Of a stretch of DNA of 18,753 nt, positions 2 to 18,753 are shown piece after piece. Each line of letters opens with the position of its first letter. Position 1 is the stretch's first letter. Origin of the DNA: a virus. Its lineage: Duplodnaviria > Heunggongvirae > Uroviricota > Caudoviricetes. The stretch lies in the IMG/VR virus record IMGVR_UViG_2698536576_000004; one strand, given 5' to 3'. Both the position numbers and the translations under genes were made by a program. The notes beneath the pieces are model-generated. The model was not told the origin of the DNA and made no database searches. It saw nothing but the letters and a program-made list of their open reading frames with translations.

Positions 2-1297
2 TTAATTTTTCATTGCTTCGTTATGGGGCATGGTTGGGGCAAACTCGCTTAACTGTGTATTTAACAAAGCTACCTGTGCATTATTGTTTTCAGACATCCA
101 TTTTCCGTATACCTGAAATACCATTTGCGCATCTGCATGGCCCATCTGGTTTGCTATAAATGCCGGGTTAGCACCAGCTGTCAGCGACCAGCAGGCATAA
201 GTATGTCTCGACTGATATGATTTTCGATGGCGGAGTCCGGCACGTTTTATCGCTGCGTCCCACATCTGCCTTATTGAGTCAACGGTAAAATGGTCACCAT
301 AATTTTTTACTCTCGCTGATACTTCAGGTTGAAAAACAAAGGTGCATTTTTGTTTTTCTGTTCTGCCATACTCTCTGAGGTGAACATCAATGATATGCTC
401 TTTGCTCAGTCTCGTTAATGTCATCTGACTCCGGAGAGCGTCGATTGCTGGCTTAATAAGATGAATGACCCGATTGGTTCCCGCCTGTGTTTTTGGTACC
501 GTGAAACGGTCTTTTGCTAAATTTCTCCTGATCATCATTGTTCCATTTTTCAGATCTATGTCCTCCCATCCAAGTGCACACAGCTCACCAGGGCGAACGC
601 CAGTATAAACAGAAACACACCATAAATTTTTTGCTTGCTGATTTCTGCACGCATCGATAAGACGGATAAATTCCTCCCGCGAAAGAGGATCCGGAATGGT
701 TCTTGATTCCTTTAATGGCGAGATCCCCTTAAACGGATTATCTGCCAGGTAACCGTTATCAACACCAAACTGGAACACGGCGTTAAGATTTGTCATGTAA
801 TTATTTACAGTTACAGCCGATCTCCCTGGTTGTGTAACAATATAGTTACTTTTGGGGATCTGGTATCCAGTCAGTAGCTCTTTACGAACCTCCAGTAATT
901 TTTCTTTATTAATCGATGAGGCAAGATTTTTTTCACCGATTATGCTTAGGATATTTTTGATGACGGCACGGTATGTGTTGAGTGATGTTTTGGCGACTTC
1001 AGTTTCTTTCAGTGCCAGAAATTTTTCAGCCAGTTCTTTTATGGTTAAATCTTGTCGGGCCTCACCAAATTTTTCCAGATTGCGTGAGGAGGGAAACTGT
1101 TTTGCATAGTCGAAAACACCAGTTTTTATTGCGTAACAAACAGAGGAGCGTAGTTCACCTGCAACGCGCCTGTTTTTTGCTGTGTCAGGAACCCCCAGAT
1201 TTTCCCTGACTCTTACGCCTTTATAAACAAACCAGATACGTAATTTCCCTCCATGGTTTTCCACGCCTGTCGGATATTTCATTTCAACTTCTCTCAT
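2..1297 (-). CDS. int: Phage tyrosine integrase (lambdoid IntR/IntQ-like site-specific recombinase)
   Basis: 431-aa ORF. N-terminal 'YPTGVENHGGKLRIWFVYKGVRVRENLG' and C-terminal catalytic region 'RHTYACWSLTAGANPAFIANQMGHADAQMVFQVYGKW' (R..H..Y tyrosine-recombinase signature) resemble the Rac/Qin-type integrase as I remember it. Stop codon at 2-4, so attP/attL lies just outside the window. Confidence 0.9.
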   Translation of the reverse strand: MREVEMKYPTGVENHGGKLRIWFVYKGVRVRENLGVPDTAKNRRVAGELRSSVCYAIKTGVFDYAKQFPSSRNLEKFGEARQDLTIKELAEKFLALKETEVAKTSLNTYRAVIKNILSIIGEKNLASSINKEKLLEVRKELLTGYQIPKSNYIVTQPGRSAVTVNNYMTNLNAVFQFGVDNGYLADNPFKGISPLKESRTIPDPLSREEFIRLIDACRNQQAKNLWCVSVYTGVRPGELCALGWEDIDLKNGTMMIRRNLAKDRFTVPKTQAGTNRVIHLIKPAIDALRSQMTLTRLSKEHIIDVHLREYGRTEKQKCTFVFQPEVSARVKNYGDHFTVDSIRQMWDAAIKRAGLRHRKSYQSRHTYACWSLTAGANPAFIANQMGHADAQMVFQVYGKWMSENNNAQVALLNTQLSEFAPTMPHNEAMKN

Positions 1298-1316: not shown

Positions 1317-1568
1317 TCAAGTAAGATGACGTCTTGGTCTCGCTGATGCCTGGCGCTCAATCCAGCGATCAATTTCTTCCAGGTTGTAAAAGCATGGACT
1401 GTTATCCCATGGCATACCGTCATGAGCGACATGCTTATATTCCCTTCCTTCCATAAACGATTTTTCCCGGGCCTTTTTTAACGTACCTTTTTTTATTCCT
1501 TTCAGCGCAATTAACTGCTCTTCGGATACCCATTTGCCGGGAGAGACAATCATGATTACTTCGCTCAT
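1317..1568 (-). CDS. xis: Excisionase-like protein (DUF1233-type Xis)
   Basis: 83-aa ORF directly upstream of int on the same strand, the canonical xis position. Small basic protein. Exact start uncertain (alternative Met at residue 6). Confidence 0.65.
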   Translation of the reverse strand: MSEVIMIVSPGKWVSEEQLIALKGIKKGTLKKAREKSFMEGREYKHVAHDGMPWDNSPCFYNLEEIDRWIERQASARPRRHLT

Positions 1569-1640
1569 CGATTTCTTTATCTCTTACATCAGACGAGCGC
1601 CGGTTGCAGAATACCAGTCACAACCGGCGACAGTTGAACA

Positions 1641-4112
1641 TTAAGAATCAGCCTGACTCGGGATCAGTTTTTGCCAGATAACTGAAACGTATTTTGCCTG
1701 GTAACGGGCGTCATCAAGTGCATTATGGCGCTCACCTTCGAATGGAATAGCCGTTCTGGCATCGAAGTCTATGGCTTTCCCCAGCTCAACGATTGTGCGT
1801 ACATCGCGATCGTTGTAGTAACGCCACGGGCAGGGGATCCCCTGCCGTTCGTATGAACGGCGCAAAATCGTGTTGTCGAAGTTGGCTCCATTTCCCCAGA
1901 CCTGAACAAAAAATTCACCGGAGTTTTCGTCGATAAATTCCCGCAATTGTAACAGTGCATCATCTAACGGGATTTCATCGGTCATAATGGCAGATTGCGC
2001 TTCGCGTGATTGCTTAAGCCACCATTTAATGGTGTCCCGATCAATGACTCCGCCAGCAGTTTCCAGATCGATAGTCTTACTAAATTCCGGTCCCATATCT
2101 CCGGTTTGCGGATCGAAAAATATTGCACCTATTGAGATGATCGGGGCATCAGGATTTTTTCCCATGGTTTCAAGGTCGATCATTAGATGGTCACACGTCC
2201 TGCTGGTGGATGTGATTTCGTGATGACCGTTCACCTTAATTGAGTGATCTGCCGTCTCGCCAGTTTCATTATCGCTATCGTGATGCTGATTGCCGCCAGT
2301 GTTCTCCTTGTGTGGATGTTCAGCGCCTTCCATTTCCTTCGGATCATCTTCCTGAACTTCAACCTGATACTCTTCATCGAATGTTTCCTGGTATGTTGCG
2401 TCGCCCATCACCGCGCCACAATCAGGGCAGTTGTCGCCGCCGGTCTGACCGCAGGCGGTGCAGACTTTTTCCACTTCCTGTTGCGCCACTGGTTCAGGCT
2501 GTTTCGTTTCTGGCTCGTTTTGTAACGCATTTGGGCTGTTTTGTTCCGCTTTTTGGTAGTTCCGTTCCGATTCATGCTGGTTCTGGTTCACAGAATCGCG
2601 GGTCTGGATCCCCTTAACCCATTTCGGATCATTCGGGTCACTAATCCCTTCAACAAATTCACCACGTGATGCAGCAAGCAACTTATCGGCGTCAGGCTGG
2701 CTGATATTGGCTGCCTGCATAATTTTGTTTACTTCGTTAGCGGTAACTTTTATCGGTTCTGGTTGTTCTGAATCTTCAGCGGTATCTACATTTTGCGGTA
2801 AGCCCGTGTATGTGCCATTTTTTCGGGCAAAATATTCTTCTTTAGTGATTTCAGTGGCGCCAGCAGCCAGTGCCTTATCCAGACCAGAAAGTTTGTTTGC
2901 GCGACCGTATTTTTCTCCGTCCTTATCTGCGAAGAGGAAATAGAACGGCCCCTCACGCTCTACAGATGGTTCAGCTTCCGGCGCGGTTTCATTTTTTGGG
3001 ATATCAGATACCTCAGTTTCCACTGCATCAGTTTGTGTTTCTGATGACTGGAGAACATCAACAGTGCCCAGGTCTGTTTCTTCATTCTCAAACACGCCCT
3101 TTGTCGTCAGGTATTCGCAGATATATTTGTTCAGTGCTACGGGTTCTTTGTGAATGTCGATCGGACGCTCACGGACAAGGCCAAAAATAGTTTGGCGGTC
3201 GTAGCGAAGGGCATCAGGCTGTTTGCGCATTGATGCCGAGATACGCTTCCAGTCTTCGCGGTCGTTGTCGATAACTTCTTTTTTTGCCCAGCGATGGATG
3301 CTGCCGTCAATGTTTCCGGCATCCACATCACCAGGCCAGAGAGCGTAGGCCAGTTCGTCATCCAGTGTTTTCCATGTCTGCTTGTATTCGCGATGAATGG
3401 CAGCAATGACCGGGCTGATTTTTCCTGTTGAATTTTCAGTGTACTGTTGATTGGCTCTGGTGCGGGCGAGATCAACAACAGACGTGTATTTTCCGGTTTC
3501 CTTGCGTTCACCTTCGCGACGTTTTTTCCAGATGCGCATCTCTGCCTGAATTTCGGGCCATTTAGCACCAGGAATACATTTATGCTTAACCCACCCAATG
3601 GCGTGCAACTTAAGCTCCGGATACATGGCGTTAACTTCTGGCATTTTCATCAACGCTTCAACGATATGTCCGTCGAATGTTGCCATGTCTTCCTGCAACA
3701 ATTCCTGTGCGCTAATAACCATATCAACGGTGATGTTTTCACATGTGTCGAACTTAACCATGACAGCGTTCTGTACTTCAGGGGCCAGCTTGTCAAAAGT
3801 GACGTTCATCGGATCGGATTTAGTCTCAACCGGGACAAAAGAAGCAGACTCCTCATCCCAGCGGTTTTCCTGCATATATTCAGCATCCCATGAATCGAGG
3901 GCAGGGCGGGGTATGCCAGGTTTATCCTCGCAGACAATAAATTTATAAGCGCAGTCCTGAGCAGCCGTATAATGTTCCAGGAACTGCCAGTGAAATTTTG
4001 CTCGAGCACGGCGTTCGTCGCCAGCTTCAATGGCTGTGGCTACAGCCACAGCGCCTTCTTCCCTTGTTGCCAGTTCGTCAGGAATAGCGGCGCAAATAAA
4101 GACTTTACTCAT
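1641..4112 (-). CDS. Phage exonuclease, 823 aa; C-terminal DnaQ/DEDDh-like 3'-5' exonuclease domain (often annotated 'exodeoxyribonuclease VIII-like')
   Basis: C-terminal ~190 aa carry 'MIDLETMG...' (Exo I motif D-x-E) and a distal 'HNALDDARY' (Exo III H-x4-D). Central Cys4 ribbon 'CTACGQTGGDNCPDCG' and a long acidic/Gln-Pro-rich linker. SD-like GAGG 9 nt upstream of ATG at 4112. Confidence 0.8.
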   Translation of the reverse strand: MSKVFICAAIPDELATREEGAVAVATAIEAGDERRARAKFHWQFLEHYTAAQDCAYKFIVCEDKPGIPRPALDSWDAEYMQENRWDEESASFVPVETKSDPMNVTFDKLAPEVQNAVMVKFDTCENITVDMVISAQELLQEDMATFDGHIVEALMKMPEVNAMYPELKLHAIGWVKHKCIPGAKWPEIQAEMRIWKKRREGERKETGKYTSVVDLARTRANQQYTENSTGKISPVIAAIHREYKQTWKTLDDELAYALWPGDVDAGNIDGSIHRWAKKEVIDNDREDWKRISASMRKQPDALRYDRQTIFGLVRERPIDIHKEPVALNKYICEYLTTKGVFENEETDLGTVDVLQSSETQTDAVETEVSDIPKNETAPEAEPSVEREGPFYFLFADKDGEKYGRANKLSGLDKALAAGATEITKEEYFARKNGTYTGLPQNVDTAEDSEQPEPIKVTANEVNKIMQAANISQPDADKLLAASRGEFVEGISDPNDPKWVKGIQTRDSVNQNQHESERNYQKAEQNSPNALQNEPETKQPEPVAQQEVEKVCTACGQTGGDNCPDCGAVMGDATYQETFDEEYQVEVQEDDPKEMEGAEHPHKENTGGNQHHDSDNETGETADHSIKVNGHHEITSTSRTCDHLMIDLETMGKNPDAPIISIGAIFFDPQTGDMGPEFSKTIDLETAGGVIDRDTIKWWLKQSREAQSAIMTDEIPLDDALLQLREFIDENSGEFFVQVWGNGANFDNTILRRSYERQGIPCPWRYYNDRDVRTIVELGKAIDFDARTAIPFEGERHNALDDARYQAKYVSVIWQKLIPSQADS

Positions 4113-4205
4113 TTTGTTTTAACCTCATGACAGATTTAAGGATGAACAAATCCCTGCCATTGCTGGCATATAAGAATGAAACCGGATATTTATTACGGAA
4201 CTGTT

Positions 4206-4397
4206 TTAAAGACCTGCCGGGATTTCGATATTATCCTGGTGAATAACTTTATCGACCGGGTAACAGTTACCGGGAATTTTCTGTTCGGTTGCTGCAGTCA
4301 TACACTCCTGCATTGTCCTGTGAACACTGACTGCAATATCAACTGGCTCTCCGGAAACAAGAAAAACTGTCAGAACAAGCGCAAATGCTGAATTCAT
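4206..4397 (-). CDS. ydfD: YdfD-like small protein with N-terminal hydrophobic/signal-like segment (Qin lysis-associated protein family)
   Basis: 63-aa product starting 'MNSAFALVLTVFLVSGEPV...'. SD AAGGA 8 nt upstream of ATG (4395-4397). ATGA overlap with the dicB stop suggests translational coupling. Length and position match K-12 ydfD as recalled. Confidence 0.7.
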   Translation of the reverse strand: MNSAFALVLTVFLVSGEPVDIAVSVHRTMQECMTAATEQKIPGNCYPVDKVIHQDNIEIPAGL

Positions 4398-4582
4398 TGT
4401 GCACATCCTTTTGGCATCAGACGTAAACGAGCCAGCATTGAAACAATGCATATTTTATTTAATAGCTCCCGTTCTTGTTTTCTCTTGTTAATGGCATCTT
4501 CAGTAAATACAGGGTTACTGATAGAGACACCAATTTCAAAACAACCTTCAGACGTATTAACGTTTGGTAATAACGTTTTCAT
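4394..4582 (-). CDS. dicB: DicB cell-division inhibitor (MinC-activating), 62 aa
   Basis: 'MKTLLPNVNTSEGCFEIGV...MPKGCAQ', 62 aa, matches my recollection of DicB in length and sequence. SD GAGGA 8 nt upstream of ATG at 4580-4582. Lies ~170 bp downstream of DicF, as in Qin. Confidence 0.8.
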   Translation of the reverse strand: MKTLLPNVNTSEGCFEIGVSISNPVFTEDAINKRKQERELLNKICIVSMLARLRLMPKGCAQ

Positions 4583-4750: not shown

Positions 4751-4809
4751 TAAAAACGGCGGCAGAGCAGTCACGGAGTAAAACTGATACCGCCAAACGT
4801 CACCAGAAA
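4751..4809 (-). ncRNA. dicF: DicF small RNA (ftsZ-targeting sRNA of the dicB operon) with intrinsic terminator hairpin
   Basis: Minus strand reads 5'-TTTCTGGTGACGTTTGGCGGTATCAGTTTTACTCCGTGACTGCTCTGCCGCCGTTTTT-3', essentially identical to the DicF sequence as I remember it, including the GGCGG...GCCGCC stem and U-run. Ends approximate to +/-3 nt. Confidence 0.85.
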
Positions 4810-5975: not shown

Positions 5976-6383
5976 TTATTGATGCTTGTTGCGTTTGCGA
6001 GCCTCTAATAGCTCGGTGAACAGGCGATTAAAATTCTCAACGCGGGCGCGGAGTTCGCTGAGTTGTGCTTGTTGCTCTGATTTAGGAAGTGCGCGATACA
6101 AACGCAGCATCTCTAACTCATCTTCCGATAAGTCTAAGGCACTATCGAGTGAAACAGGGGGAGCTGGTGTTTTGTCCTCGTCGCCAAACAGTATCCAGGT
6201 TGGTGAACATTGCAATACCTCGGCGAGGCGATGCAAATTTTGCCCGCGCGGGGCTGTATGGTCACTTTCCCATAATGAAATTGATGAGCCAGATACGCCA
6301 GCAGCTTTGCTTAAACCGTTTTGACTTAAGCCTACCTGCTTACGTCTTTCTCTAATGCGTTGACCTAAAGTTTTCTCGTTCAT
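5976..6383 (-). CDS. dicA: DicA-like HTH (XRE family) prophage repressor
   Basis: 135-aa product from ATG 6381-6383. The '...LQCSPTWILFGDEDK...' block and C-terminal '...RARVENFNRLFTELLEARKRNK' match DicA as recalled. HTH region 'GLSQNGLSKAAGVSGSSISLWE'. An upstream in-frame ATG at 6432-6434 is also possible. Confidence 0.85.
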   Translation of the reverse strand: MNEKTLGQRIRERRKQVGLSQNGLSKAAGVSGSSISLWESDHTAPRGQNLHRLAEVLQCSPTWILFGDEDKTPAPPVSLDSALDLSEDELEMLRLYRALPKSEQQAQLSELRARVENFNRLFTELLEARKRNKHQ

Positions 6384-6404
6384 ATTTAGATATCTTAATA
6401 ACCC

Positions 6405-6453
6405 TTGACTTGAGATTCCTTGAGTGATTAGCATTGAGAAAACTCAATATTGG
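6405..6453. promoter_or_regulatory. Divergent dicA/dicC control region: candidate dicC promoter plus DicA operator
   Basis: TTGACT (6405-6410), 17-bp spacer, TTAGCA (6428-6433) as a weak -10. Palindrome TTGAGAAAACTCAA at 6434-6447 plus additional TTGAG half-sites at 6409-6425. Confidence 0.45.
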
Positions 6454-8603: not shown

Positions 8604-10160
8604 ATGAATGCCTATAAATTCAGAAATAATGATGAGATTGGAAAATTAGAGGCGGAAACTGATTCTTATCTTGATGCTTGTTTTTATGAGTCCAATGTTT
8701 TTAAAGGTATTGTGAATTTTGACTCTACTGAGAAGAATCCTGATTTTACAAGAAGAATTATTGTTGGAAGAACAGGAAGCGGTAAGTCTGCGTTGCTTAA
8801 AAAAATATTAGACAAAGGAAATATTAAGCTGCATGACACAATAGAGGCAGAAAATACGATATTTGAACATATTAATAACAATGTGTTTATATCTGATTTG
8901 ATCTCGAAAGGGATAGATTTACGTGGGTTTTATAAATCGTTATGGCTGCATGTATTACTTATGAAAGTTATACCAGCCGTTTATCGTTCTTCCTATCAAA
9001 GCTTTTTTGAGGAAATTAAAGATCTTATTGGTGGTAAGAAGAAACCGTATAAACCAGAAGTTGCGAATGATTATATTGAACAATTTAAAGAAAATTTCTT
9101 CAATGATAAAGCGCTCATTGAAATAAGTAACAAGCTTGAAAGTGATTTGTCATTCAAACTCGGAAATTCCGCTGTTGGTGTGGGTGGTAAAATATCTAAT
9201 TCTGATACAGCCAAAATACAATCAGAAACTTCAAGTTATGTGAGTCGTGAACTTCTTTTTAAACAAAAAGAACTTATTAAAATACTTAAAGAGGAGTTCG
9301 CTGACTCAAACCAGGTTAGAATAGTAATCAGTATCGATGATTTAGATAAATCTTGGTTAAGCACGAGCGCCATCAGATATGACTTTATTAATGCTCTTCT
9401 TGAGGCCTTTCGAGAATTATTAGATATAAAGTCGGTTAAGGTTCTGATATCAATAAGAACAGATATTTTAATGGGAATTTATAAAAGTAGTTTAAGGCAG
9501 GATGAGAAAGATCAATCTTTAATATATTCCATATCATGGAATAAAACGGAAATAAGAGAGATTATTGATGCTAGAATTAACCATTTGGTTAAAAATAGAT
9601 ATCAATCAAATAAGTCTGTATTAATGAAGGATATTTTTAATTTTACAGTTGAAGGTATTGGAGCAGATGATTATATCCTTGACAGAACAATGCTTAGGCC
9701 TAGAGATGCAATTAATTTCGTAAATATATGTCTTTCTGAGTGCGATGGTATGGTTAACATGAATGAAAATATTGTGTTAATTGCCGAAGAGAAATTTTAT
9801 TCATCCAGAAAGAGAGCTTTGGTTACAGAATGGAAAAGCATATATCCGTTTATCGAAGAATATTTGGATGTGCTTTCCTTGATTTCATTTTCTGATTTTA
9901 CAGTCTCAAACATAGGACAAGCAGTAAAAGATGATATATCGCAGCATTTACTTGATAGATTGACTGTAGTTAAAGAGGATGATCAACATACAAAAATATT
10001 GATGAATTTTGAGGAGTTACTTAAAGTCTGGTTCGTCGTAGGCGTGGTTGGCATAAGGAAAACAGCATCTTTAATTATATATTCATCTTTTGATAAACCT
10101 AATTTGGATATTACTGATATGAAGAGAGATTTTGTAATACATCCGTTGTTTGATAGGTAA
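8604..10160 (+). CDS. P-loop NTPase, 518 aa, KAP-like Walker motifs; AT-rich cargo gene, candidate defense/abortive-infection protein
   Basis: Walker A 'GRTGSGKS' (nt 8766-8789). Walker B-like 'RIVISIDDLDK' (IDDLD at nt 9333-9347), resembling the KAP-family hhhhDDLDR. Possible Arg motif 'LRPRDAINF'. Markedly lower GC than flanking genes (by eye, not computed). Preceded by an AT-rich promoter-like region (8500-8600). Confidence 0.85.
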   Translation: MNAYKFRNNDEIGKLEAETDSYLDACFYESNVFKGIVNFDSTEKNPDFTRRIIVGRTGSGKSALLKKILDKGNIKLHDTIEAENTIFEHINNNVFISDLISKGIDLRGFYKSLWLHVLLMKVIPAVYRSSYQSFFEEIKDLIGGKKKPYKPEVANDYIEQFKENFFNDKALIEISNKLESDLSFKLGNSAVGVGGKISNSDTAKIQSETSSYVSRELLFKQKELIKILKEEFADSNQVRIVISIDDLDKSWLSTSAIRYDFINALLEAFRELLDIKSVKVLISIRTDILMGIYKSSLRQDEKDQSLIYSISWNKTEIREIIDARINHLVKNRYQSNKSVLMKDIFNFTVEGIGADDYILDRTMLRPRDAINFVNICLSECDGMVNMNENIVLIAEEKFYSSRKRALVTEWKSIYPFIEEYLDVLSLISFSDFTVSNIGQAVKDDISQHLLDRLTVVKEDDQHTKILMNFEELLKVWFVVGVVGIRKTASLIIYSSFDKPNLDITDMKRDFVIHPLFDR

Positions 10161-10390
10161 TAGCAATGTGAATATGTTGAGACTACTGGAAAAGCTATAA
10201 CTCCTTTAGTAAAGTTTCCGTGGGTGCTTGAGGCTATCTGTCTCAGGCATGAACACCAAAGGCAGATAGAGAAAAGCCCCAGTTAACATTACGCGTCCTG
10301 CAAGACGCTTAACATTAATCTGAGGCCAATTTCATGCTAGACACATGTAGGTTAGCCTCTTACGTGCCGAAAGGCAAGGAGAAGCAGGCT

Positions 10391-10546
10391 ATGAAGCAGC
10401 AAAAGGCGATGTTAATCGCCCTGATCGTCATCTGTTTAACCGTCATAGTGACGGCACTGGTAACGAGGAAAGACCTTTGCGAGGTACGAATCCGAACCGG
10501 CCAGACGGAGGTCGCTGTCTTCACAGCTTACGAACCTGAGGAGTAA
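10391..10546 (+). CDS. hokD: Hok/Gef-family membrane toxin (HokD/RelF-type)
   Basis: 'MKQQKAMLIALIVICLTVIVTALVTRKDLCEVRIRTGQTEVAVFTAYEPEE', 51 aa, matches HokD/RelF as recalled. SD AAGGAGAAG upstream. In-frame upstream extension from 10334 not annotated separately. Confidence 0.9.
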   Translation: MKQQKAMLIALIVICLTVIVTALVTRKDLCEVRIRTGQTEVAVFTAYEPEE

Positions 10547-11080: not shown

Positions 11081-11359
11081 ATGGCACGCAACGTAAAATA
11101 TTACAATTCTGATAATTCGCCCGTTCTTGCCTGCACGCACGGGCGGTATTCTCACGCATTCAAGTCTGAATGGTTCCAGCACCCTCCATGCACTGCAGAA
11201 CAGGCCGAATGGCTGATTCATTCTTACCGCAGGCGCGGGTTCGAGGTTAAGAAAGCTCTCAGTCTCGACTATCGGCACTGGATAATCTCTGTCAGGCTGC
11301 CTTATTCCGAACGCCCACCACGTGCGTCCCGCACTTTCCAGCAACGGATCTGGAGGTAA
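11081..11359 (+). CDS. Hypothetical 92-aa protein
   Basis: ATG at 11081 with GGAG 8 nt upstream. Its stop TAA (11357-11359) lies inside/next to the SD of the following GTG-start gene, suggesting translational coupling. Confidence 0.5.
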   Translation: MARNVKYYNSDNSPVLACTHGRYSHAFKSEWFQHPPCTAEQAEWLIHSYRRRGFEVKKALSLDYRHWIISVRLPYSERPPRASRTFQQRIWR

Positions 11360-11360
11360 C

Positions 11361-12410
11361 GTGCGGGTATTACTTAGACCTGTTCTGGTGCCTGAGCTTG
11401 GGCTGGTGGTCCTTAAGCCGGGCCGTGAATCCATACAGATATTTCATAATCCTCGAGTGCTGGTGGAACCGGAACCAAAAAGCATGCGTAATCTGCCATC
11501 CGGAGTCGTTCCTGCCGTTCGCCAGCCGCTGGCGGAAGACAAAACATTGCTGCCGTTTTTTAGTAACGAACGGGTGATTCGTGCTGCTGGCGGCGTTGGC
11601 GCATTGTCTGACTGGCTATTACGTCATGTTACATCCTGCCAGTGGCCTAATGGCGATTACCATCACACTGAAACAGTCATTCACCGTTATGGTACCGGCG
11701 CAATGGTGTTGTGCTGGCACTGCGACAACCAACTGCGTGACCAGACATCGGAATCACTGGAGCTGCTTGCTCAACAAAATCTGACAGCATGGGTGATTGA
11801 CGTCATCCGTCACGCAATAAGCGGTACGCAGGAGCGGGAATTATCTTTGGCTGAATTATCCTGGTGGGCGGTCTGCAATCAGGTGGTGGATGCACTACCT
11901 GAGGCTGTATCGCGTCGTTCGCTGGGATTACCAGCGGAAAAAATCTGCTCGGTGTACCGCGAAAGCGACATCGTACCGGGAGAGCAGACCGCCACCAGCA
12001 TATTGAAACAACGCACAAAAAATCTTGCACCGTTGCCTTACGCCCACCAGCAACAAAAACCACCACAGGAAAAGACGGTGGTAAGCATCAACGTTGATCC
12101 AGAGTCTCCGGAATCTTTCATGAAGCTGCCTAAACGTCGCCGCTGGGTTAAGGAGAAATACACTCGTTGGGTTAAGACACAGCCGTGTGCTTGCTGCGGT
12201 ATGCCAGCCGACGATCCGCATCATCTGATTGGTCACGGGCAGGGCGGAATGGGAACAAAAGCACATGATCTCTTTGTGTTGCCTTTGTGCAGAAAGCATC
12301 ACAACGAGCTGCATACGGATACAGTGGCATTTGAAGAGAAGTATGGCTCCCAACTGGAGCTGATATTTCGTTTTATCGATCGCGCGCTGGCAACTGGCGT
12401 ACTGGCGTAA
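11361..12410 (+). CDS. ydfU: DUF968-family prophage protein (YdfU-like) with C-terminal Cys/His-rich HNH-like motif
   Basis: 349-aa product if started at GTG 11361 (GGAGG 4 nt upstream). C-terminal 'CACCGMPADDPHHLIGHGQGGMGTKAHDLFVLPLCRKHHNELH'. Position between rem and Q as in Qin. The ORF is open from 11322. Confidence 0.7.
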   Translation: MRVLLRPVLVPELGLVVLKPGRESIQIFHNPRVLVEPEPKSMRNLPSGVVPAVRQPLAEDKTLLPFFSNERVIRAAGGVGALSDWLLRHVTSCQWPNGDYHHTETVIHRYGTGAMVLCWHCDNQLRDQTSESLELLAQQNLTAWVIDVIRHAISGTQERELSLAELSWWAVCNQVVDALPEAVSRRSLGLPAEKICSVYRESDIVPGEQTATSILKQRTKNLAPLPYAHQQQKPPQEKTVVSINVDPESPESFMKLPKRRRWVKEKYTRWVKTQPCACCGMPADDPHHLIGHGQGGMGTKAHDLFVLPLCRKHHNELHTDTVAFEEKYGSQLELIFRFIDRALATGVLA

Positions 12411-13684: not shown

Positions 13685-13851
13685 GACTGCGTCGGTTTGA
13701 AGAACAGACGATATACGAAGTAGTTTACTAAAGCAGTTCTCATTTCAGGTGTTATTCACTTATTCCTTCTTTGAGTCTCTCCAATTAAGTACGAAGTCGT
13801 TTCTGTTATGCAAACCATTTATGCCGAAAGGCTCAAGTTAAGGAATGTAGA

Positions 13852-14067
13852 ATGTCAAATAAAATGACTGGTTTAGTAAAATGGTTTAACGCTGATAAAG
13901 GTTTCGGCTTTATTTCTCCTGTTGATGGTAGTAAAGATGTGTTTGTGCATTTTTCTGCGATTCAGAATGATAATTATCGAACCTTATTTGAAGGTCAAAA
14001 GGTTACCTTCTCTATAGAGAGTGGTGCTAAAGGTCCTGCAGCAGCAAATGTCATCATTACTGATTAA
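13852..14067 (+). CDS. cspB: Cold-shock protein (CspA family), CspB-like
   Basis: '[38 protein letters not shown]...' with RNP1 'KGFGFI' and RNP2 'VFVHF' motifs. 71 aa. AAGGA SD 7 nt upstream. Confidence 0.9.
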
Positions 14068-14348
14068 AATTCATCGCTCGTCTGTATACGATAACGAAGA
14101 AGGCTGATGCCTGAGTAGAGATACGGACAGAGTAGTGAATATTGGATCTCTTTAATAAAAAGTAAGGAGGTCCAATACATGAAACAATGGCTAGCATATT
14201 TGGCAAAATCTTAATCAGGAAAAGTATGCTAACCATTGTGGTGAAGTGCAGGTTTGCTGCATGAATAGTTTTACAGCAGAAGCTAACTGCTGGCATGGCA
14301 AAACAAAGTGCGTAAGTGGATGACTCCCACAAAAAGCACCACAATCTC

Positions 14349-16586: not shown

Positions 16587-16737
16587 GGTGTTCTGGTTTG
16601 TTACAAATTTATCTGAAGCAGTCATTGTTATAATTTTATTATTTGTACCTCTTGAGATTTCCTTGTTGGTTTTTCTCTCTGATATTTTTTTTCGGACCAT
16701 TCTGCCCAAGGGCTAATTTCTTCAAAAGGTAATAATT

Positions 16738-16950
16738 ATGTCTAACAAAATGACTGGTTTAGTGAAATGGTTTAACCCTGAAAAAGGTTTTGGTTTCATC
16801 ACGCCGAAAGATGGCAGCAAAGATGTGTTTGTCCATTTCTCAGCAATTCAGAGCAACGATTTCAAAACATTAACTGAGAATCAGGAAGTTGAATTTGGTA
16901 TTGAGAACGGACCTAAAGGTCCTGCCGCTGTTCATGTAGTGGCGCTTTGA
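16738..16950 (+). CDS. cspI: Cold-shock protein (CspA family), CspI-like
   Basis: '[70 protein letters not shown]', 70 aa, with RNP1/RNP2 motifs. AAGGT SD 7 nt upstream. Confidence 0.9.
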
Positions 16951-17155
16951 GGTAGACAATATTACAAACCATATTCACTTTAGATGCCCGTGTTGTCATG
17001 GTTCCCAGTATAGAACATCATCTTTTGATGTTTCTGACATGAATCCTTTCGGGGCAAAATGTATCTTTTGTAAATCAATGATGATTACATTTGATAATAT
17101 TTCACAATACTTAAATGCCAGCCGTCTGTCGTTGGATTTAAAAAAGTGAAAATGA

Positions 17156-18093: not shown

Positions 18094-18321
18094 ATGCATA
18101 AAGATCAATACACTGATGCCCCCTCCCAGGAGCAGGTTCGTGTAAAAACTATGCTTAATAGCACCATTTCGATGGGTTACCCGGATGTTGTAATTGCATG
18201 TATAGAACATCAAGTGTCTCTGGAAGCATTCAGGGCAATTGAGGCCGCGTTAGTAAAGCACGATAAGAATACGAAGGATTTGGATTTGCCCCTATATTTC
18301 CAGACACCTGTTATCACTTAA
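18094..18321 (+). pseudogene. Prophage gene truncated by IS2 insertion (native coding sequence ends at ~18280; last 13 codons are IS2-derived)
   Basis: The ORF reads continuously into the IS2 terminal inverted repeat that begins at 18281, so '[13 protein letters not shown]' is encoded by IS2 end sequence. Native part '[14 protein letters not shown]...VKHDKNTKD'. Confidence 0.6.
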
Positions 18322-18753
18322 CCCATTACTGGCCTGCTGCCGCAGATATTCCCGTGGCGAGCGATAACCCAGTGCACTATGCGGATGCCATTCGTTATAA
18401 TGCTCGAACGCCTCTGCAAGGTTCTTTGCTGCCGTTAACCCGTCTGGTTTAGGCATGATACTGATGTAGTCACGCTTTATCGTTTTCACGAAGCTCTCTG
18501 CTATGCCGTTACTCTCCGGCCTCCGCACCGCCGTGTTCTTCGGTTCAAGCCCCAACATCCGGGCAAACTGCCGTGTTTCATTAGCCCGGTAGCATGAACC
18601 ATTATCCGTCAGCCACTCTACTGGAGACGCCGGAAGCTCGTTGCCGAAGCGGCGTTCCACCGCTCCCAGCATGACGTCCTGTACTGTTTCACTGTCGAAG
18701 CCGCCCGTAGTGACTGCCCAGTGCAGTGCCTCACGGTCACAGCAGTCCAGCGC
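18281..18753 (-). mobile_element. IS2 (IS3 family) insertion sequence, partial; runs off the window's right edge
   Basis: Terminal sequence 'TGGATTTGCCCCTATATTTCCAGACACCTGTTATCACTTAACC' at 18281-18323 matches the IS2 inverted-repeat end as recalled. The adjacent minus-strand ORF matches the IS2 OrfB (InsD) C-terminus. Confidence 0.9.
18292..18753 (-). CDS. insD: IS2 transposase OrfB (InsD), C-terminal part; N-terminus lies beyond the window
   Basis: '...[62 protein letters not shown]...[29 protein letters not shown]' matches the InsD C-terminus as recalled (DDE integrase core). Reading frame stays open to the window end. Confidence 0.85.

Follow-up and report, generated by a model that had tools for sequence, protein, structure and literature searches.

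The gene and its operon

The window, that is, the whole stretch of DNA analyzed here, comprises 18,753 nucleotides (nt) of the tailed-phage record IMGVR_UViG_2698536576_000004 in IMG/VR. It was found to contain the left arm, the immunity and replication region, and the lysis region of a lambdoid prophage adjoining rspB, and it is 100% identical to Escherichia coli LH85-a across the aligned 97% of its length. Its near relatives are the isolated phages HannyBb, PhiR42_1, Tritos, and mEp460, and also the PPompW prophages. The subject of this study is one gene on the minus strand (1641..4112). According to the list of open reading frames (ORFs) and the translation, it is an intact YdfE-type coding sequence which starts with ATG and encodes an "exonuclease" of 823 amino acids (aa). 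PHROG 2082 matches the protein over its full length, and the RefSeq protein WP_053287440.1, also named "exonuclease", is 100% identical to it. In the sequence, a GAGG Shine-Dalgarno element lies 10 nt 5′ of the ATG (4123..4126, minus strand).

All the genes around it run in the same direction on the minus strand, in the order of dicA-like repressor, DUF1391, DicF, dicB, ydfD, exonuclease, xis, and int. The early-left operon lies downstream of the DicA/CI-like repressor gene (5976..6434; Pfam HTH_3 and RefSeq), and its dicB type is marked by the DicF small RNA (sRNA) at 4757..4808 (Rfam RF00039, 72.5 bits versus a gathering score of 48). The dicB gene (4394..4582) and the ydfD gene (4206..4397; DUF1482), both identified by Pfam and RefSeq, are upstream of the exonuclease gene in this leftward operon. 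A promoter scan by simple consensus matching found no promoter-like site in the gap between ydfD and the exonuclease gene. Thus, the exonuclease reads as the final gene of the early-left dicB operon. The excisionase gene xis (1317..1568; Pfam DUF1233, E=1.6e-31, and RefSeq annotation) starts 72 nt beyond the exonuclease stop codon, which leaves no space for a partner gene. The prophage ends on the left, beside rspB, with the tyrosine integrase gene int (2..1297; Pfam and RefSeq context). Between the exonuclease stop codon and the xis start codon, there is a perfect 9-bp inverted repeat, CGCCGGTTG-N14-CAACCGGCG, without a T run (1598-1629, minus strand). It may form a hairpin for RNA processing or regulation.

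The Rac and Gifsy-2 prophages hold recE-recT in the slot corresponding to the exonuclease gene. The sequence-only reading, which was an earlier reading of this DNA made without database searches, had placed the gene where lambdoid phages carry exo/bet or recE/recT, and the gene order agrees with this placement.

A DEDDh nuclease head

The C-terminal part of the protein (aa 641-819; 1656..2192, minus strand) was assigned by Pfam, phmmer, Foldseek, and residue mapping to the Rv2179c/DexA family and is predicted to be a DEDDh 3′-5′ exonuclease head. Pfam PF16473 (Rv2179c-like) matches aa 642-813 over positions 2-177 of the 177-position model (E=2.3e-67; 226.6 bits against a cut-off of 27). The motifs DLETMG (aa 646-651) and HNALDDARY (aa 796-804), which had been pointed out from the letters alone, are in place: the D-x-E of Exo I is D646/E648, the aspartate of Exo II is D746, and the H-x4-D of Exo III is H796/D801. 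These residues align with D7, E9, D119, H186, and D191 of T4 DexA, the catalytic residues as named in PMC12153337, and all five are invariant across five aligned homologues. T4 DexA (8KEL/8KEN) was the sole match to the 823-aa protein in a phmmer search of PDB sequences. It was also the best PDB match in Foldseek for the AlphaFold model of the head (8kel; E=5e-8; template modeling score normalized by the target, 0.61-0.68), followed by RNase T, DnaQ domains, Orn/REXO2, and Cap18. The predicted local distance difference test score (pLDDT) of the modeled head is 70-89.

On the other hand, homology to the PD-(D/E)xK nuclease of RecE was looked for and not found. By BLASTP, the last 200 aa have no detectable similarity to the nuclease domain of K-12 RecE, including RecE 600-866. 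Pfam gave no DUF3799/PDDEXK match to the 823-aa protein, and the RecE head as a tblastn query gave E values above 4. Thus, as judged from sequence and predicted structure, the nuclease is DnaQ/DEDDh-like and not PD-(D/E)xK, as the sequence-only reading had supposed.

Might the head act on RNA? A 3′-5′ exoribonuclease, for example one that trims or degrades host or phage transcripts or sRNAs, would agree with the history of the family, since PF16473 was founded on Mycobacterium tuberculosis Rv2179c and the NCBI name is "3′-5′ exoribonuclease domain-containing protein". The fold neighbors RNase T, Orn, and REXO2 point in the same direction, but RNase T cuts DNA too. Moreover, among solved structures, that of the DNA exonuclease DexA is nearest in both sequence and fold. 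EcD (see below), which is the closest of the relatives tested, cuts DNA, and the head takes the place of a DNA exonuclease on a RecE scaffold. An exoribonuclease role is thus very unlikely.

A scaffold and a linker related to RecE

The part in front of the head consists of folded modules and a long linker. Domain D1 (aa 1-205; 3498..4112, minus strand) is the alpha/beta and helical YdfE_N module and was modeled by AlphaFold2 with pLDDT >90. Domain D2 (aa 245-345; 3078..3380, minus strand) is helical, also has pLDDT >90, and aligns to RecE 278-360. It is the most widely conserved module, common to RecE and Gifsy RecE, with the conserved block TLDxEIAxAL...EDWKRWS...R. An acidic disordered loop (aa 346-387) precedes D3 (aa 388-435; 2808..2951, minus strand), a small beta-hairpin/helix unit with pLDDT about 90-97. 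Moderately confident helices follow, up to the motif GISDPNDPKW. The model was built on an alignment of 49-57 sequences. The Pfam assignments PF27430 (YdfE_N), PF16473, and PF27432 (YdfE_C) were precomputed on P0001, a 93%-identical homologue.

By BLASTP, aa 262-625 align with K-12 RecE 278-591 (E=3e-63) with 40% identity overall and about 80% over aa 473-625. The NCBIfam model exoVIII (NF007259) matches aa 246-625 at its positions 271-602 of 877 with 285.9 bits, below the equivalog cut-off of 1269. In a 2023 review (PMC11611040), the nuclease domain of RecE is given as 564-866 and the function of the RecE N-terminal domain as unknown. The similarity ends just short of the RecE nuclease domain. 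Since the homologous region is the non-nuclease part of RecE, the protein is a RecE-family chimera with a swapped head. The sequence-only reading had described the N-terminal ~600 aa as a region of unknown role with a Cys4 ribbon and a long acidic stretch. The ribbon and the acidic stretch are present, but the region is not anonymous, since aa 262-625 correspond to the middle region and linker of RecE.

Domain profiles and structure prediction, which had been suggested as checks, supported the DEDDh/DexA head and left the scaffold without a solved relative. For scaffold aa 1-500 (pLDDT 83), Foldseek found no relative in PDB (best E=1.4) or in BFVD (best E=0.06, on a 68-residue piece), and a profile search of PDB sequences found none either. 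An exhaustive HMMER search with aa 1-640 retrieved only 244 clusters among 1.84 billion representatives. The retrieved loci and phage records with the scaffold are mostly from Enterobacterales and their phages.

The linker (aa 500-640; 2193..2615, minus strand) is acidic, Gln/Asn-rich, and predicted to be disordered (pLDDT <50). It was delimited by pLDDT, composition, and BLASTP against RecE. Residues 501-640 include 30 D/E and 9 K/R (net -21), 14 Q, 11 N, and 7 P, and the linker has about 80% identity with RecE aa ~480-591. The Cys4 zinc knuckle, CTACGQTGGDNCPDC (aa 551-565; 2418..2462, minus strand), was recognized in the sequence, with a weak Pfam DZR match. It is present in the 823-aa protein, K-12 RecE, P0128, P0136, P0133, and P0162, and absent from the DEDDh-headed proteins P0122, P0141, and P0242. 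Judging from these sequences, the knuckle is an optional module of the linker. The idea that the DEDDh head needs the zinc knuckle was rejected, since the latter three proteins do without it.

The motif GISDPNDPKW (aa 489-498; 2619..2648, minus strand) was located by a motif scan, a pairwise alignment with the locus L019, and the RecE alignment. It is nearly invariant across members that differ in their N-terminal modules and heads, including K-12 RecE, and the head-swap breakpoint of L019 lies directly after it. The motif may serve for docking or be a hotspot of recombination.

Interchangeable heads

Among the representatives, the family members vary at three places, and the modules are freely combined. 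The N-terminus is of the YdfE_N type, as in the 823-aa protein, or of the RecE PF06630 type, or has both modules, as in P0122. The zinc knuckle is present or absent. The head is DEDDh, a RecE/DUF3799 PD-(D/E)xK nuclease, a PHROG 7838 "exonuclease" with no Pfam match, or a PHROG 26058 C-terminus of unknown nature. P0128 joins the N-terminus of RecE (100% identical) to a DEDDh head (98% identical). L019, from a soil metagenome-assembled genome, is 86% identical over aa 1-499 and then continues into a Gifsy-type PD-(D/E)xK head followed by RecT. With breakpoints after aa ~499 (versus L019) and aa ~625 (versus Rac RecE), two independent junctions lie within the flexible linker.

Annealases and the partners of the heads

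The sequence-only reading had also stated that no RecT/Bet-like annealase is adjacent. Pfam and PHROG found no member of the RecT, Erf, Rad52, or Bet families in any ORF of the window. In tblastn searches of the window, of HannyBb, and of the extended host locus, no E value was better than 0.05. The queries were the RecE head, RecT proteins of three types, a Mu-Gam-like protein, and lambda Exo, Bet, and Gam. HannyBb is a complete 45-kb phage genome with a 99.3%-identical exonuclease gene, and no component of Red or RecET was found in it. The statement was thus upheld. Two ways around it were considered. A loss of RecT at the window edge was rejected, because xis is 72 nt downstream and the complete HannyBb genome lacks Red/RecET. 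An early 205-aa ORF of HannyBb was inspected as a hidden annealase, but it has no Pfam match and its PHROG matches are only to families of unknown function.

Is the absence of RecT general for this type of head? I classified 100 related loci collected by targeted look-ups, from species-representative genomes, and from IMG/VR. RecT was found in none of the 83 loci with a DEDDh head (0/83). Downstream sequence of 1.5 kb or more is available for 58 of them, and in 48 of the 58, xis/int starts 76-149 nt past the head. In contrast, all four loci with a PD-(D/E)xK head (4/4) have a RecT-family gene directly downstream (Pfam E=2e-36 for the one in L014), and Rac and Gifsy-2 provide two further recE-recT pairs (E=8e-39 for Gifsy-2 RecT). 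In five of five loci with a PHROG 7838 head, there is a Sipho_Gp157 gene matching the PHROG family "Mu Gam-like end protection". The two loci with a PHROG 26058 head have no partner. The Gam-like gene lies downstream of the scaffold gene in L013 (7223-7717) and in L022-L025, and the two genes may form a distinct DNA-end module.

A 3′-5′ nuclease leaves 5′ overhangs, which are the wrong substrate for annealing of the RecT/Bet type. This matters for the possibility that the 823-aa protein is still a recombination protein, one that works with RecA or with a host or unlinked annealase while the scaffold supplies the recombination function. Such a role would fit the position of the gene in the exo/bet slot. 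It would also fit the origin of the scaffold, since full-length RecE is better than its nuclease domain alone in linear-linear recombination (PMC11611040). However, besides the wrong polarity, no annealase was found in the 83 loci or in the whole related phage genome, and the relatives that keep RecT always keep the PD-(D/E)xK head. I consider this role the most improbable of those discussed here, and the contrast between 0/83 and 4/4 strengthens the view in the sequence-only reading that the protein is not a classical RecET-type recombinase.

Distribution, ydfE, and selection

A ydfE fragment in a K-12 derivative matches nt 1-767 of the gene with 99.5% identity and is then interrupted by IS2. 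The 823-aa gene is the intact form of ydfE, a pseudogene in the Qin prophage of K-12, and its product is the complete YdfE-type protein of lambdoid prophages of the DicB/Qin type. The gene is present at ≥80% coverage in 3537 of 5426 complete E. coli genomes (~65%), with up to 10 matching places per genome. It is thus among the commonest prophage genes in E. coli. The sequence-only reading had recognized neither the identity with ydfE nor this near-ubiquity.

The ratio of nonsynonymous to synonymous substitution rates (dN/dS) was estimated against the Escherichia albertii copies and L019, leaving out saturated distant loci. It is 0.09-0.29 for the scaffold domains overall (D1, 0.09-0.29; D2, 0.15-0.18; aa 386-500, 0.15-0.20) and 0.34-0.41 for the head. 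The scaffold and the head are under purifying selection. The linker, with values of 0.4-1.35, is under relaxed selection. A decaying remnant was rejected as an explanation of the gene, given dN/dS of 0.09-0.41 on the folded parts, the intact frame in thousands of genomes, and its presence in isolated viable phages. Within one pairwise comparison, synonymous divergence varies more than 10-fold among segments, indicating recombination inside the gene. Between the window gene and L018, an E. albertii copy, it is 0.33 for aa 1-205 but only 0.02 for the head, which indicates that this recombination was recent.

The architecture as such is already in databases, as PHROG 2082 and as the Pfam families YdfE_N, YdfE_C, and Rv2179c-like. 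Literature searches on ydfE, on Rv2179c with phage, and on DEDDh phage anti-defense found no functional study of the 823-aa protein, and the scaffold, the head swaps, and the partner rule do not appear in the literature examined.

Other features of the prophage

On the plus strand at 8604-10160, a 518-aa P-loop nucleoside triphosphatase (NTPase) of the Sll1717-family/KAP type is encoded in an island of 31% GC between the replication genes and hok/sok. In the prophages of other strains, the same slot holds DUF4209, AIPR, KwaB-like, or RelA/SpoT genes and thus looks like a variable slot for defense cargo. A PADLOC scan of the 518-aa NTPase matched no model. Rfam identified the sok antitoxin RNA (10222-10396, plus strand), next to hokD/mok, as well as two thermoregulator leaders of the cspA type (13691-14083 and 16592-16977, plus strand) ahead of the cold-shock genes cspB and cspI.

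YdfU (11322-12410, plus strand) belongs to DUF968, and its C-terminus is of the HNH type (PHROG 96 "HNH endonuclease"; weak matches in Pfam to HNHc_6 and RecA-dependent nuclease). It is the sole other nuclease-like gene in the early region of the prophage. At the right end of the window, a fragment of an IS3-family transposase (rve_3) was found at 18292-18672 on the minus strand. The alignment with the best-matching genome stops at position 18280, and that genome has an IS1 of its own in the DUF2514 lysis gene. This region is a target of insertion sequences in several strains.

DexA, EcD, and the possibility of a defense or anti-defense role

T4 DexA shares with the head the Pfam family, the fold, and the five catalytic residues, and it is the best PDB match by sequence as well as by structure. 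The identity is only 23-26%, however, and DexA is a standalone protein of 227 aa with extra loops, while the head sits on a scaffold of ~640 aa. The proposed readers of 5-hydroxymethylcytosine (5hmC) in DexA, W152 and D169, correspond to Y766 and A780 in the head, although the position of D169 is less certain because it lies in a variable loop.

A standalone DexA homologue of E. coli, EcD ("HREX"), is reported to cut the 5hmC-containing DNA of T4 and to protect against T4 (PMC12153337). By way of the cloning primers in that paper, I found a 189-aa EcD-like protein in IMG/VR, which starts with MIDTET and has Ala78 as described. The sequence of EcD was thus inferred from the primers and not taken from its accession. 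The EcD-like protein belongs to the same family, is prophage-encoded, keeps the catalytic residues, and is 39% identical to the head, compared with 23% for DexA. It differs in being a standalone protein of a P2-like prophage and in having Ala (A78) at the position of DexA D90 while keeping W152. The head of the 823-aa protein keeps Asp (D718) at the position of D90 and has Tyr at that of W152.

The EcD-like gene was observed in L127 (4173-4742) and also in L112, L117, L130, and L133. The locus is a P2-like prophage with int, a C-type repressor, Cox, further genes, the exonuclease, and a Dam methylase. The gene is thus in the Cox-side early operon, and EcD too is possibly a gene of the phage lytic cycle. 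The published "bacterial" defense exonuclease appears to be a phage early gene.

These relatives raise the possibility that the 823-aa protein is a defense or superinfection-exclusion nuclease of the HREX/EcD kind, which degrades incoming phage DNA with modified cytosine and spares host DNA. The membership of the head in the DexA family, the activity of EcD, the closer similarity to the EcD-like protein, and the fact that the gene is carried by prophages and occurs in some 65% of the complete genomes of E. coli would all fit. However, the signature described for this activity in PMC12153337 is missing (W152 is Y766, D169 is A780, and the tetramer residue D90 is kept as D718). No PADLOC model matched the 823-aa protein. 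Moreover, the gene is at the end of a repressor-controlled early-left operon where no promoter-like site of its own was found, and is therefore unlikely to be expressed in the lysogen. Even the EcD-like gene is part of an early operon, and EcD may not be a dedicated defense gene but a lytic-cycle one. A defense role is accordingly unlikely.

An anti-defense or host-takeover nuclease is a related possibility. It would break down host DNA for nucleotide salvage or destroy immune molecules of DNA or RNA with free 3′ ends. The gene is an early lytic gene beside the host-directed dicB, DicF, and ydfD, standalone homologues occur in the accessory "ea" regions of lambdoid phages (L007), and the swapping of heads on a common scaffold resembles the modularity of arms races. 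Temperate lambdoid phages, however, are not known to degrade the host chromosome. The scaffold has no link to any defense system, and the partners of the alternative heads (RecT and Gam-like) suggest DNA-end metabolism over immunity. In its favor, host-DNA scavenging is given as the classical role of DexA in PMC12153337. I regard the anti-defense or host-takeover role as unlikely. Of the roles offered in the sequence-only reading, the evidence favors DNA-end processing, while the case for defense or anti-defense is weak.

Proposed explanation

I propose, with a probability of roughly 0.6, that the 823-aa protein is a partner-free, early-lytic 3′-5′ DNA exonuclease on a RecE scaffold and is not a RecET-type recombinase. 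The head would strip nucleotides from free 3′-OH ends by two-metal catalysis. DNA would be the likelier substrate, since it is cut by both DexA and EcD, the closest of the relatives studied, and since the scaffold is that of RecE. The scaffold would carry whichever head it bears to the same target. This target would most likely be double-strand DNA ends, judging from RecT and the Mu-Gam-like end-binding protein, with which the alternative heads are paired. The 823-aa protein would be made upon induction or infection, not in the repressed lysogen, and would act alone in trimming or degrading 3′ ends, not as half of an annealing recombinase of the RecET/Red type. As the 5′ overhangs it leaves would be unusable by annealases of the RecT/Bet type, RecT may have been lost wherever the DEDDh head is present.

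Several points weigh against this explanation. It is built on sequences and models. The Pfam family of the head is named for an exoribonuclease, and an RNA substrate is possible. The target of the scaffold is deduced from the partner genes only, and the scaffold has no structural relatives. Since the promoter scan was a simple consensus match, expression in lysogens is possible. Annealases of the Erf and Rad52 types were excluded by the Pfam/PHROG scans of ORFs only, without dedicated searches of whole genomes. The survey is also smaller than it looks. In 76 of the 83 DEDDh loci, the heads are ≥95% identical, and the loci are near-identical. Thus, the rule of heads and partners stands on about 6-7 independent lineages (the 823-aa protein, P0122, P0141, P0242, the type with a RecE N-terminus in L004, and a second copy in E. 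albertii). The PD-(D/E)xK sample is only four loci, plus Rac and Gifsy-2.

One scaffold occurs with three or four heads that have different partners, and thus its function must depend neither on RecT nor on the polarity of the nuclease. A broader version of the explanation is tentative. The RecE/YdfE scaffold could be a general targeting platform that temperate phages of enterobacteria fit with interchangeable heads, each with its own partner, and the DEDDh version could be an unrecognized single-protein activity in 3′-end processing or anti-defense. The target of the platform may be DNA ends, or a host factor recognized via GISDPNDPKW. If this speculation is true, about two-thirds of E. coli genomes carry, in the DEDDh version, something distinct from any known phage recombination system.

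There are practical consequences. RefSeq labels the proteins "exonuclease" or "3′-5′ exoribonuclease domain-containing protein", and phage records use "exodeoxyribonuclease VIII". The latter label is wrong, because the nuclease is predicted to be of the opposite class and there is no RecT. Annotation pipelines, and recombineering screens that choose "RecE" by name, would be misled. On the other hand, the natural head swaps offer a genetic handle on the role of the ~600-aa N-terminal part of RecE. The analysis also puts the recently described EcD/"HREX" in context, since it seems to belong to a large family of DexA-like nucleases that phages encode in their early operons.

Comparison with known systems

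RecE of the Rac prophage of K-12 is the system that most needs to be told apart. The two have in common the early-left slot before xis-int and the plan of scaffold, linker, and C-terminal nuclease. They also share a homologous middle domain, GISDPNDPKW, and a nearly identical Cys4 knuckle with its acidic linker. They differ at both ends and in their surroundings. RecE has a PD-(D/E)xK 5′-3′ nuclease and the 823-aa protein a predicted DEDDh 3′-5′ domain. The N-terminal module of RecE is PF06630 (Exonuc_VIII) and that of the 823-aa protein is YdfE_N. Finally, recT is next to recE, and none follows the 823-aa gene. The same distinction holds for the SynExo systems in general (RecET and lambda Red), which pair a 5′-3′ double-stranded DNA exonuclease with an adjacent annealase gene. 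Such a gene was not found beside the 823-aa gene, and its head is assigned to the 3′-5′ DEDDh class.

The RecE proteins of the Gifsy-1/2 type, together with L019/P0131, have scaffold modules in common with the 823-aa protein (27% identity of Gifsy RecE over aa 136-336). In contrast, their heads are PD-(D/E)xK nucleases of the DUF3799 type, and RecT is always next to them. YdfE of the Qin prophage (b1577) is the same gene, on which the Pfam families YdfE_N and YdfE_C were built. K-12 retains the N-terminal ~255 aa as a pseudogene, while the window has the intact form of 823 aa with the linker and the head.

The standalone Rv2179c-like exonucleases in the "ea" regions of lambdoid phages resemble the head. 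That of phage 1720a-02, a protein of 190 aa, is 60% identical to the head and is encoded in the early-left region. These exonucleases differ in having no fusion to a scaffold. Thus, the head is able to work as an independent protein.

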